In this document: positions 8,959 to 30,634 of the stretch, piece after piece
Layout of the letters: each line of letters opens with the position of its first letter
How positions within the stretch are numbered: the first letter of the stretch is position 1
IMG/VR virus record: IMGVR_UViG_3300027747_002198
Span: 1 to 64,000 of that record
Source of the DNA: a virus
DNA: 64,000 nt
Strand: one strand, 5' to 3'
The notes under the pieces: model-generated
The model's input: the letters and a program-made list of their open reading frames with translations, nothing else
Databases searched by the model: none
What the model was told of the DNA's origin: nothing
Translations under genes and position numbers: made by a program

Positions 8959-10326
8959 ATGGATACTCAACCAGTAGAATCTCCCGGATTATATTATCCA
9001 CAGGATTATAATCTTACTACATTAAATTTCTTAACCGCCAATGGTAAAAGAATTGAAATGAAAAAAATAATGAGAGAATTATCTTATTATGAGGACTTAT
9101 ACACATTTGCAATTTCTGGTTATATTAAAATAGAAGATTCTCAAGGCTTTATTGAATCGCTCCAATTAACGGGTAATGAATACCTAGAAGTCAATTTTGG
9201 CAAAATAAAAAATGCACCAAATTCTGACGACCAATTGTTCAGAGTATATAAAGTTGGTGATAGGGTTCCTGCCGGAAATCTTAACACAGAATACTATACT
9301 TTGTATTTTTGTTCTGAAGAATTGGTATTATCTGAACAAAGAAAAATAAGCAAATCATACAAAGGAATGTTAATTTCTGATATTATAACAGATGTTTTAA
9401 ATAATCAATTAAAAGTAAATAGTAAAAAAATAAACAAAATTGAAGAAACCACAGGAATGTATGATTTTGTGGTGCCAAGGATGAAGCCTTTTGAGACCAT
9501 TAGTTGGGTATCGACATATGCTCGGCCCGCAGCAACTGGAACGGTAGGTGCTGATATGTTGTTTTATGAAACAAAAGATGGATTTAATTTTAGGTCTTTA
9601 CAATCATTGTTCCAAGGAAATGTTTATGCGTCTTACAAATATCAACAAAAAAACTTAGACGACAAAGAACAGTCGATGGAAGAAAAATCAATATCAGTAT
9701 TACAATACGAATTTAATAAATCTTTTGATATTGTAAAAGATGTTGCTTCTGGTTCTTTTGCCAATCGTTTAATTACTTTAGACCCAACAACACGAACATA
9801 CAAAACAACTGATTTTGATTATAATAAATTTAAAGATCAAGCAAAATCGTTAAATCCTGATGGTATTATAAACAATCTTGAAAATCGATTTGGAGATACT
9901 TTGAATCAAGCTGCCGAAGCAGTTACTAAGCTTTTAACAAGTAATGCTGGTGAAGGCAATATACCTTACATGAAACAAAAAGAAGCAGGTTTTGCCAAAG
10001 ATATTTTTGCAGAAACCTATGTACCACAAAGAACAGCACAACTTAATTTAGCAAACTATAATGTTGTTAAATTGGCGGTACCTGGCGATCCTGGTCTTAC
10101 TGCTGGAAAAGTAATTGAATTTAACTTGATGACAATTAAACCAAGCACAACCAAAAAAGATTTAGATAAGTTCTATTCTGGTAAATATTTGGTGACAGCT
10201 GTTCGTCATGTTATTCAACCAATGAATGGAACTTATCAAACAATTTTAGAAATTGCCAAAGATAGTGCTGATAACAAATATCAAAATGTCAACAACTCTG
10301 ATTTCAAAGAGAGTGTGTCTGAATAA
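8959..10326 (+). CDS. Baseplate hub protein (gp27-like)
   Basis: Between gp53 and gp5; LFYETKDGFNFRSL, VPGDPGLTAGKVIEF, YSGKYLVTAVRH hub-type motifs. Confidence 0.7.
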   Translation: MDTQPVESPGLYYPQDYNLTTLNFLTANGKRIEMKKIMRELSYYEDLYTFAISGYIKIEDSQGFIESLQLTGNEYLEVNFGKIKNAPNSDDQLFRVYKVGDRVPAGNLNTEYYTLYFCSEELVLSEQRKISKSYKGMLISDIITDVLNNQLKVNSKKINKIEETTGMYDFVVPRMKPFETISWVSTYARPAATGTVGADMLFYETKDGFNFRSLQSLFQGNVYASYKYQQKNLDDKEQSMEEKSISVLQYEFNKSFDIVKDVASGSFANRLITLDPTTRTYKTTDFDYNKFKDQAKSLNPDGIINNLENRFGDTLNQAAEAVTKLLTSNAGEGNIPYMKQKEAGFAKDIFAETYVPQRTAQLNLANYNVVKLAVPGDPGLTAGKVIEFNLMTIKPSTTKKDLDKFYSGKYLVTAVRHVIQPMNGTYQTILEIAKDSADNKYQNVNNSDFKESVSE

Positions 10327-11213
10327 TGGAAAATTTCTTAGGAAAAGATGGTTTTAACTGGTGGATGGGAGTTGTAGAGTCCCGTGATGATCCATTAAAT
10401 CTTGGAAGATGTCAAGTTAGGATATTTGGACATCATTCAGACAATACACAAGAAATTCCTACGGGTGACTTATCATGGGCTTTACCTGGTTATTCGCCTA
10501 ATTCTGGATGGGTATCTTCTACTCCAATCAAAGGTGATTATGTTTTTGGATTCTTTTCTGATGGGGCTTCATCACAAGCACCTGTTATGTTAGCAATATT
10601 TCCTGGTATACCACAGAACGGACCAACAACAGGAGGATTTTCAGAAGGTGATCATTACCCTATAGGTGAACCCACAACAAGTCGTTTATATCGCAATGAA
10701 AAGATAGATCAAACACCAATTGGAGTGCATAATAGCAATTTAGATACTGGTGTTGCAACTGCTTCTGGAGGTTCTTGGAGTGAACCAAAATCACAATATA
10801 ATACACAACCTCCTTATAATAATGTCACCGAAACGATGGCGGGTCATGTTTTTGAGTTAGACGATACTCCGGGTGCTGAAAGAATACACCTAAATCATAA
10901 AACAAATACATTTTTTGAAATTGCGCCAGACGGAAGTAAAGTCACCAAAGTACAAGGCGACAACTATGAAATTTATATTAAAGATAATAATGTTCATGTT
11001 AAAGGTCAATGTAATATCACGGTTGATGGTAATGCTGGTGTCTACGTTAAAGGAGATAGCACATTAAAAACGGATGGTAATTCAAACATAAATGTTGGAG
11101 GTAATGCAAATTTAAATGTATCCGGTAGTTTAAATTCAAAAATTGGAAGTAATTACAATATTAACTGCGGAGGAAACTTTAAAGTTTTGGCTGCAAGAAT
11201 TGATTTAAATTAA
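10326..11213 (+). CDS. gp5: Baseplate central spike gp5 (OB fold + beta-helix, no lysozyme domain)
   Basis: WWMGVVESRDDPLNLGRCQVRIFG, GHVFELDDTPGAERI, C-terminal VxG repeats; only 295 aa. Confidence 0.9.
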   Translation: MENFLGKDGFNWWMGVVESRDDPLNLGRCQVRIFGHHSDNTQEIPTGDLSWALPGYSPNSGWVSSTPIKGDYVFGFFSDGASSQAPVMLAIFPGIPQNGPTTGGFSEGDHYPIGEPTTSRLYRNEKIDQTPIGVHNSNLDTGVATASGGSWSEPKSQYNTQPPYNNVTETMAGHVFELDDTPGAERIHLNHKTNTFFEIAPDGSKVTKVQGDNYEIYIKDNNVHVKGQCNITVDGNAGVYVKGDSTLKTDGNSNINVGGNANLNVSGSLNSKIGSNYNINCGGNFKVLAARIDLN

Positions 11214-11675
11214 ATGTCAACATTAACTCCGGCAACATTATCTACTGTATATGTGGAAACACAATTTTCTGATACAATACTTGTTCAAGAAATTGATGAT
11301 ATGGGGACTGCCTATCCGGCTAATGTAATTTCTGTTACTTCTAATTATGATCCACTTACAAATGTATTTAAATTTTCAAACACGTTTACGACAGGAAGTG
11401 TAACAATTTATGGTGCTTTTTCTTTAAATTTGTTTCCCTCATCAATTATACAGTATATTACAAAAGGAAGTTCAGATAAAATAGAAACTTTGGTTACAAC
11501 AAATTCTTTTGATTTAATTCCTACTGGTAAACAAGTATTTAATTATCAAGCGCCTAGAGCAGCCACAATTGATGTAATTTTTACAATAACAACAAACATT
11601 TCTTTTTCACAAATTACTAAAACCGTAGAATACAATTATGATACGGGTAGAATAAAATTATTGAGGTACATTTGA
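11214..11675 (+). CDS. Hypothetical protein (Thr-rich, beta-rich) between gp5 and PAAR
   Basis: 153-aa ORF abutting the gp5 stop, with a TGATG overlap into the PAAR gene. Confidence 0.6.
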   Translation: MSTLTPATLSTVYVETQFSDTILVQEIDDMGTAYPANVISVTSNYDPLTNVFKFSNTFTTGSVTIYGAFSLNLFPSSIIQYITKGSSDKIETLVTTNSFDLIPTGKQVFNYQAPRAATIDVIFTITTNISFSQITKTVEYNYDTGRIKLLRYI

Positions 11676-11974
11676 TGCCAGCACAATCTAGATTAGGAGA
11701 TATATCTGCCGGACACGCTTGTTTTCCGCCGACTCCTATTATATCAAATGTGACACAAACTGTATACATTAATGGTATACCAGCAGCTCTTTTAGGTTCC
11801 CAACTCGCTCCGCACGCTTGTGGCCGTGAAGTACACGCAGGAGGGTTAAGAAAGATTGTTTCTGGTAGTTCTTCTGTATTTTTTGAAGGAAAAGCGCCTG
11901 CCAGAATAGGTGATTCAATTGCAGATGGAGATTGCATGGCACAAGGTTCAGGTAACGTATTTGTAGGTGGTTAA
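11675..11974 (+). CDS. PAAR-repeat spike tip protein (gp5.4-like)
   Basis: SRLGD..GH.CFPPT, INGIPAA, GSSSVFFEGKAPARIGD, GSGNVFVGG; ATG at 11675. Confidence 0.9.
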   Translation: MPAQSRLGDISAGHACFPPTPIISNVTQTVYINGIPAALLGSQLAPHACGREVHAGGLRKIVSGSSSVFFEGKAPARIGDSIADGDCMAQGSGNVFVGG

Positions 11975-11983
11975 ACCAAATGG

Positions 11984-12062
11984 AAAATTCAAAAATTTGC
12001 GTTCCGGCTCCAAAAATTCTCCTTGCAGATTCAGGAGTCCAAAAAGCAATTTTACTCCTAGA
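11984..12062 (+). repeat. Intergenic structured element, copy 1 (candidate ncRNA/cis-regulatory motif)
   Basis: Aligns with 30165-30244; hairpin AGGAGT-CCA-AAAA-GCAA-TTTT-ACTCCT. Confidence 0.65.
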
Positions 12063-12067
12063 ACTCT

Positions 12068-12075
12068 GATAAATA
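12068..12075 (+). promoter_or_regulatory. Late promoter 4 nt upstream of the gp25 ATG
   Basis: GATAAATA-GAAG-ATG. Confidence 0.55.
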
Positions 12076-12079
12076 GAAG

Positions 12080-12472
12080 ATGGCAAAATTAATAAACATA
12101 TATTCGGACATAGATTTCACTTTCAGCAAACGACCTGTGGTGAAAGATGTTGCTTTAAGTTATGACGAGAAAGCAGTAATAAGGTCAATTAGAAATTTGT
12201 TGTCCTTAAAACACTACGAAAAGCCTTTTAATCCAGAAATTGGTTCAAATTTGGATGCTTTGTTATTTGAAAATTTTTCCCCACTAACTGCTTCTAGCAT
12301 TGAAACTGAAATAAGTAACATTATACAAAATTATGAACCTAGGGCATCTTTAAAAGAAGTTATTGTAAACGCATCGCCAGACAAAAATGCTTATAATGTA
12401 ACTTTAAGTTTTTACATACAAAATGCAACATTACCAACAACGGTATCACTTATATTAGAGAGAAATAGATAA
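12080..12472 (+). CDS. gp25: Baseplate wedge subunit gp25
   Basis: YSDIDFTF, AVIRSIRNL, EKPFNPEIGS, LLFE, NYEPR, LERNR. Confidence 0.92.
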   Translation: MAKLINIYSDIDFTFSKRPVVKDVALSYDEKAVIRSIRNLLSLKHYEKPFNPEIGSNLDALLFENFSPLTASSIETEISNIIQNYEPRASLKEVIVNASPDKNAYNVTLSFYIQNATLPTTVSLILERNR

Positions 12473-26900: not shown

Positions 26901-27125
26901 ATGTTAGTTCAAGTTACTGGTACAAAATTGGTTCGTGATACGGAAACAATGGCTCTCATTAATAAAGATATTAATGGACTGGAAGAATATAATTTAAAAA
27001 GAAAAATTGCAGCCAGCCAAAAAGAAGAAATAAATACAATTAAATCGGAAATCAACAACATAAAAAACGATATGAGTGAAATTAAACAGTTGTTGTTCAA
27101 ACTTTTAGAAGGTACAAATGGCTAA
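26901..27125 (+). CDS. Small coiled-coil protein typically found after VrlC-like genes
   Basis: LVRDTETMALINKD, C-terminal heptads EINNIKNDMSEIKQLL. Confidence 0.7.
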   Translation: MLVQVTGTKLVRDTETMALINKDINGLEEYNLKRKIAASQKEEINTIKSEINNIKNDMSEIKQLLFKLLEGTNG

Positions 27126-30100
27126 TACAGTTTCTATTTTAGGGTATGCTAATACATTTGGTGATTGGGTAGTTACTACTAATTATTTGGCTGGTGAAAA
27201 TAATAATTTAGCGGCAAAAAATTATACCAAATCAACTGGCACATTGATTGTTTCCGACCCATCAAACGCATTTCAAGCAAATGGTCCTGTTAATTTTTAT
27301 AATACGGTAAGTGTTACCAATCCTGGTTCTTCCGTATCTATTGACAACAATTTAACAGTCAAATACGGCCAAGTATATTTTTCAAATACTCAAATAGGTT
27401 TAAATAACGCTGGTCAAATGATTGTTGGAGGATTGTTGAGTGTCAATGGTCCAGGTTTAGGTCTTGCCGTTTTAAACAATTCTCAATTGAATGGTTATTT
27501 AAGAGTAACAGGCAATACAGTTATTGCAAACACATTAAGTGTTTCTGGCACAACCGTAATTTCAAATACAGTTTCAATTTCTTTAGATACCACAGTAGGT
27601 GGTAACGTAATTGCTCAAAATTATGTTAATGTTACTAAAGATGTCAACGCTGTTAATTTTAATGCCACAAATTCCTTCAATGGTTATAATTTGGCCATTA
27701 ACGGAAATGGTTTAATAACAAACAACTTAAACGTCTATCAACAAACAAATCTTAGTGGTAACGTATTTGCTGGAAATAATATTACTACTGCACTTACTGT
27801 AACATCAAACGTAATAAATGCAAACACAACTATTAATACTCCTTCATTAAATGTGTCTGTATCTGGTTATATTTCTAACTTAACTTCTTTATTGTTGAAT
27901 GCTAATACTGTATATGCTAATACATTTAATGCCAACACAACTATTAATACTCCTTCATTAAATGTATCCACAACAGGATATGTTACAAACTTAACTTCTT
28001 CTTTATTGAATGTAAGTGGTTCATTATTTGCCAATACATTTAATGCCAATAACACCATTAACACCAAAATATTAAATGTTAGTGGTAATACATTTACAGG
28101 CAATCTTAATGCAAATGGTTACACATTCTTAGGTGGTGTATTGAATGCTGCTGGTTCGGCTTATGTAAACTCTCTATCATCAAATGGTGCAATTAATGGT
28201 ACCAATCTAACATTAAGTGGAACAACACTTAATGCTACAGGTGTATATGGACAATTCCAATCATTATACACTTCAGGTTCTGTAACTGTTAATGGCAATT
28301 TTGTAATTACTGGTACTACAGTTTATGCAACAAATACATTCACTCTTAGTGCTAACGCTAGTTCACCAATCAGTTCATACTTTAATGTGTATCGTCCATC
28401 AGCAGCAAATGCTTCTTTCCGTTGGAATGAGCCACAACAGTACTTTGAGTTAAATGATGTCAATAATGGAAATTATTACAGAATATTAACTGACGAATAT
28501 GTAAGTGATACCACTTATAATTATGGTTCAAAAAATATTGCTACATCAAATGCAGTATCTTATTTGCAAGGTGTTGCAAATACAGCAAACACAAATATTA
28601 ACAATGTAAATTTAACATTAGCTTCCAATTCAGCAACATTACAATCTAATATTGATAACGCTAATGCTAATGCAAGAAATTCTTCTTATCAAACAACAGG
28701 AACATTGCCTGCTGCTCGTTTGCCGGCATCAGGTGTAACTGCTGGATATTGGGGTGGCGCAACACAAATTCCAGTATTAAATATTGATTCTACTGGTCGT
28801 GTAATTTCAGCAGCTAATACAGCAGTATCTTCAACTTTGGCAACAGCAGGCTCGAGTGGTACAGGTAGCGTATCTTTAATTAGTCAATCATTGACTGTTA
28901 CATCATCAAACACTTATATTACTACTGTTGTTAATTCTGGTCAAACTTTAACTGTTACTCCACAAACTTCAGGTGCAACATTTGGTACCTACGGATCAAG
29001 TACATCAATTCCAGTTCTTACAGTTGACACTTTTGGTCGTGTAACTAATATAACAACGACCGCAATTTCAACTTCAATTACACTTGCTGGCGGTTCAGGT
29101 TCTGGTTCAGTTGCTGGTGGTGGAACATTAACAATAAATGGTAGTACAGGACTTACGACATCAGTAAGTGGCAGTACATATACGCTTACAAACTCTGGTG
29201 TTACTTCTATTACTGGAACAACAAATCAAATTACTGCTTCAAGTTCTACTGGTGGCGTAACATTATCATTACCTCAAAATATTAACTCTGGCGCCGCTCC
29301 AACATTTGCTGGTACAAACTTCACAAGTATTCCTAATGGCGCTTTGACCAATTCAACCATTTCTGGAATTTCTCTTGGAGGCAGTTTAAATAGTTTAACA
29401 TTTAGTAACGGTGGATCAGGAGATGCATCTGCTTCAACATATAATGGCTCTGCAGCTAAAACTATTAGTTATAACAGTATTGGAGCTTCTCCATTAGCTG
29501 GTTCTTCTAGTTTGACTACTACCGGTACAATTACTTCCGGTATTTGGTCGGCTTCTTTTGGCGCTGTATCTGGTGCAAATTTAACAGGATTGACCGCTGG
29601 TAATTTAACAGGAACTATTCCTTCGGGAGTTCTTGGAAATTCTACATTATATGTTGGAACTACTGCAATTGCACTAAACCGTGCTTCTACTTCACAAACG
29701 TTAACTGGAGTTAGTATTGACGGTAATGCTGGCGGATCAGCAGCAACATTTACAAGTACGTCACAGAATTCTCAATTCAATTCTATTGGTGTAGGTACTC
29801 CTGCTTCTACGACTGCTGGTGAAATTCGTGCCACTAATAATATTACTGCTTACTATTCTTCTGATAAGAAATTTAAAGAAAATGTTGTTGATATACCAAA
29901 TGCTCTAGATGCCGTTGATGCAATTGGTGGTAAGTTATTTGATTGGACCGATGCTTATTTGGAAGCTCATGGTGGTGAAGATGGTTACTTTAATCAAAAA
30001 CAAGATTTTGGTGTTATTGCTCAGGATGTTCAATCTGTATTCCCAAGAGCAGTCCGAACAAGACCAGATGGTTCTTTGGCAGTTGATTATGAAAAATTAG

Positions 30101-30165
30101 TTGCTTTGTCATTTGCAGCAATTAAAGAACTTAAAGCAGAAATTGAAGAATTGAAGAAGTCCTAA
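27118..30165 (+). CDS. Tail fibre with C-terminal intramolecular chaperone (peptidase S74-like) domain
   Basis: N-terminal ANTFGDW, beta repeats, GVTAG.Y...GRV repeats, GEIRATNNITAYYSSDKKFKENV, GVIAQDV, LAVDYEKL, terminal coiled coil. Confidence 0.82.
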   Translation: MANTVSILGYANTFGDWVVTTNYLAGENNNLAAKNYTKSTGTLIVSDPSNAFQANGPVNFYNTVSVTNPGSSVSIDNNLTVKYGQVYFSNTQIGLNNAGQMIVGGLLSVNGPGLGLAVLNNSQLNGYLRVTGNTVIANTLSVSGTTVISNTVSISLDTTVGGNVIAQNYVNVTKDVNAVNFNATNSFNGYNLAINGNGLITNNLNVYQQTNLSGNVFAGNNITTALTVTSNVINANTTINTPSLNVSVSGYISNLTSLLLNANTVYANTFNANTTINTPSLNVSTTGYVTNLTSSLLNVSGSLFANTFNANNTINTKILNVSGNTFTGNLNANGYTFLGGVLNAAGSAYVNSLSSNGAINGTNLTLSGTTLNATGVYGQFQSLYTSGSVTVNGNFVITGTTVYATNTFTLSANASSPISSYFNVYRPSAANASFRWNEPQQYFELNDVNNGNYYRILTDEYVSDTTYNYGSKNIATSNAVSYLQGVANTANTNINNVNLTLASNSATLQSNIDNANANARNSSYQTTGTLPAARLPASGVTAGYWGGATQIPVLNIDSTGRVISAANTAVSSTLATAGSSGTGSVSLISQSLTVTSSNTYITTVVNSGQTLTVTPQTSGATFGTYGSSTSIPVLTVDTFGRVTNITTTAISTSITLAGGSGSGSVAGGGTLTINGSTGLTTSVSGSTYTLTNSGVTSITGTTNQITASSSTGGVTLSLPQNINSGAAPTFAGTNFTSIPNGALTNSTISGISLGGSLNSLTFSNGGSGDASASTYNGSAAKTISYNSIGASPLAGSSSLTTTGTITSGIWSASFGAVSGANLTGLTAGNLTGTIPSGVLGNSTLYVGTTAIALNRASTSQTLTGVSIDGNAGGSAATFTSTSQNSQFNSIGVGTPASTTAGEIRATNNITAYYSSDKKFKENVVDIPNALDAVDAIGGKLFDWTDAYLEAHGGEDGYFNQKQDFGVIAQDVQSVFPRAVRTRPDGSLAVDYEKLVALSFAAIKELKAEIEELKKS

Positions 30166-30244
30166 AAATTCAAATTTTTGTCTTCCGGCCTCCAAATTTT
30201 CCGGACGTGATCCCAAAGTCTTAAAAGCGATTTTACTTTTGAGA
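30165..30244 (+). repeat. Intergenic structured element, copy 2 (candidate ncRNA/cis-regulatory motif)
   Basis: Aligns with 11984-12062; hairpin AAAGT-CTT-AAAA-GCGA-TTTT-ACTTT. Confidence 0.65.
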
Positions 30245-30258
30245 TTAGGTGGAAATTA

Positions 30259-30266
30259 CATAAATA
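30259..30266 (+). promoter_or_regulatory. Late promoter
   Basis: Intergenic CATAAATA upstream of SD GAGG and the ATG at 30299. Confidence 0.55.
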
Positions 30267-30298: not shown

Positions 30299-30634
30299 AT
30301 GAGCGCAGGGTATCAAAATCTCTATATGGAACAAGGAACTACCTTTTCCACCACAATCACTTTAGATGATGTTTATTTAAATACCTATAATTTGGTGGGC
30401 TTTACTGCGTCTAGTCAGATGAGAAAGTCATATTATTCAGCCAATGCTTCAGCGGTATTTTTAACAACAATTTCTGGTGGTGCTGGCCAAATAACATTAA
30501 AACTGAATGCTAACACTACAGCGAATCTTGTTCCTGGTCGTTATGTTTACGACACTCTTATTACCAGTCCATCCAATGAAGTAACAAGAATTTTGGAAGG
30601 CACTATTGATGTTTCTCCTGGAGTAACAAGATAA
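30299..30634 (+). CDS. Conserved T4-like virion protein (Ig-like fibre adaptor)
   Basis: EQGTTFST, SQMRKSY, GRYVYD, RILEG.I.VSPGVTR. Confidence 0.7.
   Translation: MSAGYQNLYMEQGTTFSTTITLDDVYLNTYNLVGFTASSQMRKSYYSANASAVFLTTISGGAGQITLKLNANTTANLVPGRYVYDTLITSPSNEVTRILEGTIDVSPGVTR

Follow-up and report, generated by a model that had tools for sequence, protein, structure and literature searches.

The DNA analysed here (the window) comprises the first 64 kb of the 161,799-bp IMG/VR virus record IMGVR_UViG_3300027747_002198 (labelled G000), which has direct terminal repeats and a G+C content of 35%. The window codes for the structural module of a T4-like myovirus, whose closest cultured relatives, as judged by gp6, are Melnitz, a phage of Methylophilales, and two phages of Pelagibacter, Mosig and HTVC008M (~41% amino-acid identity). 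Two gaps between genes of this module hold a short element composed of a core, a spacer and a 3′ box, and both copies, as well as the genes and motifs described around them, lie on the + strand. Copy 1 follows a PAAR-motif gene (11672–11974; Pfam PAAR_motif, E = 4e-12; stop codon 11972–11974) and starts 9 nt past its TAA. It consists of a 27-nt core, AAAATTCAAAAATTT GCG TTCCGGCTC (11984–12010, alignment columns 7–33), a spacer that varies in sequence at fixed length (12011–12030, columns 34–53), and a 3′ box, TCAGGAGTCC AAAAAGCAATTTTACTCCTA (12031–12060, columns 54–84), which holds a hairpin drawn by the first-pass annotation. The copy ends 5 nt before GATAAATA (12068–12075), a T4-type late-promoter motif situated 4 nt 5′ of the ATG of gp25, the gene for a baseplate wedge protein (12080–12472; Pfam GPW_gp25, E = 7e-12). 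Copy 2 overlaps the TAA (30163–30165) of a tail-fibre gene (27118–30165; 1015 aa, with a C-terminal Peptidase_S74 chaperone according to Pfam), its core lying at 30165–30191 (covariance-model E = 1e-19), its spacer, in which TCCGG...CCGGA is able to pair, at 30192–30211, and its 3′ box at 30212–30241. It ends upstream of the late-promoter motif CATAAATA (30259–30266), which stands 32 nt 5′ of the next ATG, that of an LtfC-like ORF (30299–30634) with a weak Pfam LtfC match (E = 8e-4, below the curated cut-off). The designation of GATAAATA as a T4-type late promoter is putative and derives from the motif and from established knowledge of T4.

That the element is genuine and homologous in its two copies is confirmed. 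The coordinates given in the first-pass annotation (11984–12062 and 30165–30244, both on the + strand) are correct, and so is the position described there, with each copy at or just after a stop codon and upstream of a late-promoter motif. The two copies align without gaps and are 66% identical over 78 element columns, a wider MAFFT alignment of the pair giving a mean column identity of 74%. Their combined motifs occur exactly twice in the window and not once in 100 shuffles, and both copies are recovered by the family profile at E-values of 1e-17 to 1e-19 (nhmmer) and by a sequence-only covariance model at 1e-19 to 7e-21. The TTCCGGC core that had been singled out is common to both and nearly invariant across the family.

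The neighbourhood of copy 1 has its own peculiarity at the spike tip, where the window has two extra genes 5′ of the element, a 153-aa ORF (11214–11675) and the PAAR gene. In the nearest relatives (L009, L003, and L088) the gp5-like spike gene directly adjoins the element (vs 10326–11974 of the window), and the gene content at the spike tip therefore differs between relatives; elsewhere among the relatives the place of the PAAR gene is taken by other genes.

Homologues in related phages and their conservation

A search of related phage genomes yielded about 100 distinct homologues in IMG/VR contigs, and three samples were used to describe them. A gp25-anchored search gave ten relatives, with the element 5′ of gp25 in all ten. 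Scanning IMG/VR with a sequence pattern yielded 52 distinct homologues, a set in which the pattern forces the core, with identities of 88% in the core, 49% in the spacer, and 66% in the 3′ box. A third sample was obtained with a gp25 protein profile, independently of the pattern, and comprises the 80 best loci, whose gp25 is 55–86% identical to that of the window; the element is present in 54 of these 80, directly 5′ of the gp25 late promoter, and absent in 26. Key tests were repeated on 47 gp25-anchored sequences against the ascertainment bias of the 52-sequence set; the core identity dropped from 88% to 80% in this unbiased set, and the conclusions were unchanged.

In loci without the element, the late promoter adjoins or overlaps the upstream stop codon, as it does in HTVC008M and Melnitz, both of which lack the element and have gaps of 17–19 nt before gp25. 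A blastn comparison of the region with phage records returned no match. Because it is missing from 26 of the 80 loci as well as from Melnitz and HTVC008M, the element is clade-specific and dispensable, and its role is not an essential one.

Downstream of the element, TAAATA, 3–6 nt, and the ATG of a gp25-sized ORF succeed one another in 43 of the 52 pattern-found loci; 8 others are of the copy-2 type or otherwise different. The late-promoter motif of the clade (43 loci; 12068–12082 in the window) ends 4–5 nt before the gp25 ATG, and in HTVC008M (L143:2045–2065) TATAAATA is followed after 5 nt by the ATG of gp25. Such short distances in the clade and in HTVC008M would be compatible with a leaderless gp25 message. 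In Melnitz (L142:2065–2090), gp25 has a 17-nt leader with AGGAG instead.

The 27 nt of the core read AAAATTCGAAwwTTT, 2–3 nt, GTTCCGGCC, and the consensus of the 3′ box is ..C.AGA.TCC AAAAAGCGAwTTTACT CC/TT TA. In the unbiased set, among pairs of phages with gp25 proteins at most 75% identical, pairwise identity amounts to 80% in the core (27 nt), 53.5% in the spacer (20 nt), and 66% in the 3′ box, as compared with 75% at codon positions 1+2 and 48% at codon position 3 of gp25. With the core at 80% against 48% at gp25 third positions, and with its retention in about 100 phage contigs, the earlier claim of a selected non-coding element stands. The spacer, whose identity is near that of gp25 third positions, is almost without indels, and the element from core to 3′ box (columns 7–85) measures 77 nt in 46 of the 47 unbiased sequences; the spacer drifts near-neutrally in sequence at constant length. 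Between the 3′ box and the late promoter the distance is not constant, being 13–19 nt in gp25-type copies and ~35 nt in copy-2-type copies, and the cassette is therefore a self-contained unit.

In its first half, the core amounts to no more than an imperfect palindrome whose register shifts. The spacing of A-tracts has no 10.5-bp phasing (z −0.2, in a test whose z-values are inflated by the kinship of the sequences), so that an intrinsic-bend architecture is unsupported. Two other candidates were rejected, namely restriction-site logic, since the genome does not avoid TTCGAA, CCGG, or GGCC to any unusual degree, and a DGR-type template/variable repeat, since the differences between copy 1 and copy 2 are not specific to adenines. 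Over the whole of G000, CGCG is nearly absent (2 observed, ~75–150 expected) and GATC occurs at half the expected number (264 observed vs ~505); the scarcity of the two words suggests avoidance of restriction sites.

Tests of folding and coding

The first-pass annotation had taken the element for a structured RNA or a hairpin DNA element, with a GNRA-loop hairpin at its 3′ end kept by compensatory changes. This hairpin (GGAGT/ACTCC vs AAAGT/ACTTT, with AAAA/TTTT and loops GCAA/GCGA) can indeed be drawn in both window copies exactly as described, two double changes included. Copy 2 also folds somewhat better than its shuffles (z −2.08), and a subset of the homologues has a TCCGG/CCGGA hairpin, 19% having z below −1.5 for that region. 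However, its differences are not compensatory in the evolutionary sense, the arms being unassociated among the 52 homologues: ACTCC and ACTTT combine freely with AGAAT, AATAC, GGAGT, AAAGT, AGATT, TGGTT, and others, two of the five lower-stem pairs, 57–82 and 60–79, are unpaired in 26 and 34 of the 52, respectively, and AAAA-GNRA-TTTT occurs in 12 of the 52 only.

RNAalifold gives a consensus of 0 pairs on 10, 52, and 47 homologues. When the hairpin and two other candidate helices were counted against column-shuffled controls, the three paired in 74.1% of cells vs 74.7% after shuffling (52 sequences) and in 67.4% vs 69.3% (47 unbiased sequences), where 500 of 500 shuffles were at least as good; covariation of the candidate helices was not above that of shuffled or slid controls. 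None of the helices P0, P1, and P2, nor a long-range closing helix, is supported by such counts. Minimum free energies equal those of dinucleotide shuffles, with a mean z of −0.15 on the + strand and −0.10 on the − strand; the P1 region has a mean z of −0.39 and the 3′ half one of +0.17, the minus strand being similar, and the 3′ half averages only −1.9 kcal/mol. With no consensus fold, pairing at the shuffle level and folding z of about 0, the structured-RNA model is largely refuted in silico, and we regard a structured RNA or hairpin DNA as very improbable. The two 'compensatory' pairs can be accounted for at chance level between paralogues that are 66% identical.

The earlier statement that the element belongs to no named family holds. 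For both copies, Rfam gives no match at gathering scores or E-value thresholds, and the matches at E 1.1–7.1 in a search extended to E 10 are noise. A scan for intrinsic terminators lists none at 11984–12062, and in both copies A-rich or mixed bases come after the possible hairpins; a canonical terminator is found elsewhere in the phage, at 2049–2090. A likeness to the 3′ end of a tRNA (TTCGAA, then GTTCCGGCCCA) was also dismissed, as ARAGORN detects no tRNA at G000:136.2 kb and the CCA is not kept across the family. The only gathering-level Rfam match in the window, to abiF at 2049–2085 (+; 44.3 bits vs 37), is unrelated to the element. The matched sequence, CCCACC...GGTGGG with a T-run (2049–2090), is located directly after a gp32-like gene and has the look of an ordinary intrinsic terminator whose loop is large.

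Another reading is that of a small ORF, or of what is left of the 5′ end of a gene since lost. Copy 1 can be read from an ATG at 11980 to a TGA at 12075 (31 aa). Neither window copy interrupts this frame, in which six of their codons differ in a synonymous-looking way, and it is open in 37 of the 52 homologues. In one contig (L078, described below), a 274-aa ORF whose ATG overlaps the upstream stop even reads through the element in the same frame. Yet another + frame is likewise open in 37 of the 52 and a minus frame in 32, in-frame stops occur in 15 of the 52, the start codon is missing in most, and the differences between copies 1 and 2 fall on the three codon positions in numbers of 13/6/10. 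Moreover, the four-fold degenerate sites of GTT CCG GCC, in the only plausible frame, are invariant, which suggests that the nucleotides themselves are constrained; nor would a functionless relic hold a core identity of 80%. The element is not coding, and we give this alternative hardly any credence.

Further copies, flanking genes, and spread

The copy-2-type elements of seven contigs constitute a single clade; copy 1 falls among the gp25-type elements of other phages. In the seven contigs the gene order is syntenic: a 2097-aa protein, a 74-aa protein, the S74 fibre, the element, and the LtfC-like ORF. Homologues of the latter, 51–69% identical, are found 3′ of the element in six contigs other than the window's, and CATAAATA, the late-promoter motif of copy 2, also follows the copy-2-type elements of the six other contigs, with GATAAATA in L023. 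Because the copy-2 position is syntenic in seven contigs and its elements have a clade of their own, the duplication is old; the two copies have been maintained independently.

The rest of the genome had been named as a place to look for additional copies, but no third full copy exists in the 161.8 kb according to profile and covariance-model searches. What they do reveal is a core-only copy at G000:136209–136244 (covariance-model E = 6e-5, genome-wide) whose internal spacing is unchanged, ~35 nt past a T5orf172/MUG113 nuclease-like gene and upstream of an early-type promoter region. The core-only family extends to 8 further contigs with the same 8-nt spacing from TTCGAA to TTCCGG. The surrounding region, G000:136170–136480 (L140:12170–12480), lies outside the window and contains, in this order after the nuclease-like gene, a hairpin CCTGGA...TCCAGG, the core-only copy, and GGCCCAAA...TTTGGGCC with a T-run; a near-consensus sigma70 promoter (TTTACA-16-TATAAT) is located ~200 nt past it, and the region is kept in 8 other contigs.

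Three copies are present in G006, a near-complete relative of 156.7 kb whose gp25 is 56% identical: one at gp25, a second 18.5 kb downstream of it in surroundings that are not homologous, and a third made up of the core alone. The second copy (L279:1500–1600) has a perfect 8-bp inverted repeat, CCTGAGAT...ATCTCAGG, around its CCGGCC block. It is directly followed by an ATG, without a late-promoter motif, and the genes on either side of it are without homologues in the genome to which the window belongs.

All copies seen are co-oriented with their flanking genes, and the genes that end 0–8 nt before the core are diverse, including the gp5-like spike, PAAR, a ~280-aa '...INS' family, the S74 fibre, and others. 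A foreign ORF occurs on the other side. In L078:2908–3732 (IMGVR_UViG_3300009155_000939), the 274-aa ORF mentioned above is situated between the element and the gp25 late promoter. It belongs to no Pfam family, its ATG overlaps the stop codon of the upstream gp5-like gene, and the element itself makes up the first ~25 codons of the ORF, which may resemble a CmcJ/2OG-oxygenase-like auxiliary gene. Partial elements exist as well: L239 retains the 3′ box alone, and L225 retains a remnant of the first block.

On the gp25 tree, presence and absence of the element are interleaved, with 14 changes, at least 4 of which are forced by well-supported branches; one of the 'absent' loci is the L078 insertion case. 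This interleaving invites the view that the element is selfish or spread by recombination, in the manner of a MITE or of a homing-associated cassette, and is copied from phage to phage and from site to site without benefit to the phage. Copies in non-homologous contexts, the core-only copy beside a T5orf172 nuclease-like gene, the empty sites of outgroups, where the promoter adjoins the stop codon, and the constant length of the copies speak in the same direction, and presence/absence polymorphism together with copies in unrelated contexts is what a MITE-like element displays. However, when filled and empty sites were compared by eye (L224 vs L209; L103 vs L239), neither terminal inverted repeats beyond short A/T runs nor a target-site duplication was seen, and a genome has 2–3 copies only. 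Moreover, the copies cluster by position rather than by genome, which indicates long vertical maintenance, and the combination of purifying selection in blocks and a spacer that is neutral suggests that the sequence itself has a function. A purely selfish cassette is improbable.

A 480-kb contig, IMGVR_UViG_3300042922_000939, with at least 10 pattern matches was rejected as a carrier of further copies, the likeness being put down to the search pattern. Its matches (L021, L030, L051, L062, L071, L074, L090, L107, and L117) fall in at least 10 palindromic composite repeats of ~280 nt, in both orientations, with arms that begin TTTTTATAAATTCGAATYTTAACCATCCGGCCCTTTTAG. This repeat looks like a MITE-like one, of a jumbo phage or a cellular contig. 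A host origin of the element was rejected as well, as the 28 scattered matches in 185,579 prokaryote species, none of which extends beyond the pattern, are at chance level.

Reading of the cassette and comparison with known elements

Block-wise constraint, a neutral spacer of fixed length, and the lack of both fold and coding suggest that the primary sequence is read in a fixed geometry. The explanation we favour, tentatively, is a protein-read, dispensable boundary cassette at gene-module junctions, putatively a site in duplex DNA. The 77 nt of fixed length (27-nt core, 20-nt spacer, and 3′ box) lie between the stop codon that closes one late gene and the beginning of the following unit, in most cases a T4-type late promoter, and would be read there as primary sequence. 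A candidate sequence-specific protein, of the phage or of the host, would bind them as duplex DNA, and the bound site would mark where a variable upstream gene gives way to the next late unit, be it gp25 or the LtfC-like fibre gene, or would insulate the two from each other. Being conserved while the genes around it vary, the cassette may also serve as a recombination junction. The conserved blocks, the fixed geometry, the modular core-only and 3′-box-only copies, and the varied upstream genes are all in favour of such a boundary site. What the data show is the homology of the copies, their distribution and pattern of conservation, the absence of structure and of coding, dispensability, and the swapping of genes at the edges; we infer a protein as the reader, DNA instead of linear RNA as its substrate, and an effect on transcription.

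The distance between 3′ box and promoter, which varies, and the G006 copy without any late promoter argue against a classical promoter activator acting at a fixed distance. A more specific arrangement is conceivable but unlikely, in which core, 20-bp spacer, and 3′ box form a fixed-geometry DNA site on which a phage protein assembles and controls late units locally. As a roadblock or insulator, it would have gp25 and the fibre genes expressed solely from their own (leaderless-type) late promoters; as an 'enhancer', it would offer a defined loading site for the late-transcription clamp machinery. To our knowledge, no specific sequence is used by this machinery in T4, and in T4-type late transcription the 8-bp TATAAATA and the mobile clamp are thought to be sufficient, without sequence-specific upstream elements.

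One observation weakens the preference for a boundary site in DNA: a linear RNA signal would account just as well for the strict co-orientation with transcription. Such a signal, unfolded and intercistronic or 3′-untranslated, would belong to the upstream late transcript; it is a possibility to be taken seriously, if a doubtful one, and nearly as likely as the protein-bound site. The candidates are RNase E-type cleavage within the repeated GAAwUUUU, a site where a termination factor would load or pause, and a site for an RNA-binding protein, and in each case the upstream message would be separated from the downstream unit. Every copy is just past a stop codon and co-oriented, in at least 4 independent contexts, the RNA is unstructured, C exceeds G (22% vs 15%), GAAAUUUU-like stretches recur, and the core-only family has a hairpin and a T-run after it in its relatives. 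Nevertheless, known RNA processing and Rho sites are degenerate, whereas the core of the element is nearly invariant and its length is fixed to the nucleotide. In addition, the C-over-G skew is mild, and the position says little, as compact genomes put any intergenic element beside a stop codon.

Whether read by a protein on DNA, as we prefer, or otherwise, the cassette can be set beside several described systems, of which the PeSL (promoter-early stem-loop) cassettes of T4-type phages are the nearest. In these, a stem-loop resembling a terminator is joined to an early promoter of the sigma70 type or a middle promoter of the Mot type, and they occur in many copies, mostly in hyperplastic regions (Arbiol et al. 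2010, PMC2839356; Comeau et al. 2014, PMC4122927). Like a PeSL, the element is a short conserved non-coding intergenic cassette of T4-like genomes, located beside a promoter and at sites of gene-content difference, where it offers homology for modular shuffling. Unlike a PeSL, it has no conserved stem-loop, no T-run after any of its hairpins, and a long sequence-specific core of its own. Its adjacent motif, NATAAATA, is of the late type, and a consensus scan lists no sigma70-like pair in the element. Copies are few, two full and one core-only in 161.8 kb and three in the 156.7-kb relative, and those of the window reside in the baseplate/fibre module. Three of the four PeSL features examined are lacking in the element; the one found consists in insertions, deletions, and replacements at the edges (the upstream genes, the L078 ORF, and presence/absence).

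The element also shares traits with two other kinds of phage signal. Stoperators of cluster A mycobacteriophages are 13–14-bp asymmetric repressor sites near gene ends, oriented with transcription; they number ~20–30 per genome in temperate phages and bind the immunity repressor. The element resembles them in being intergenic, conserved in sequence, unstructured, near stop codons, and co-oriented, and putatively also in acting on DNA as a boundary to which a protein binds; it differs from them in that it is ~80 nt long, bipartite, and present in 2–3 copies in a T4-like (lytic-type) phage. The initiation hairpin of T4 gene 25, with its split ribosome-binding site, is reportedly the work of Nivinskas and co-workers; it is said to lie in the 5′ leader and to bring the SD near the AUG. 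It is likewise a non-coding feature immediately 5′ of gene 25 in a T4-type phage. In contrast to it, the element is upstream of the putative promoter and lacks a hairpin kept across the family, nor is the GGAG of copy 1 retained.

Conserved intergenic cassettes are already known from T4-like phages, the present one being unstructured and located beside late-promoter motifs in the structural module. The case also holds a caution, in that two double changes between diverged paralogues mimicked covariation and were not covariation. Kept in about 100 uncultured relatives of the pelagimyophages, the cassette would be, for this phage group, a new cis-acting signal at two paralogous positions that adjoin late promoters. 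It would provide a handle on the protein that reads it, and would mark the junctions at which spike-tip and tail-fibre (host-range) genes are exchanged.
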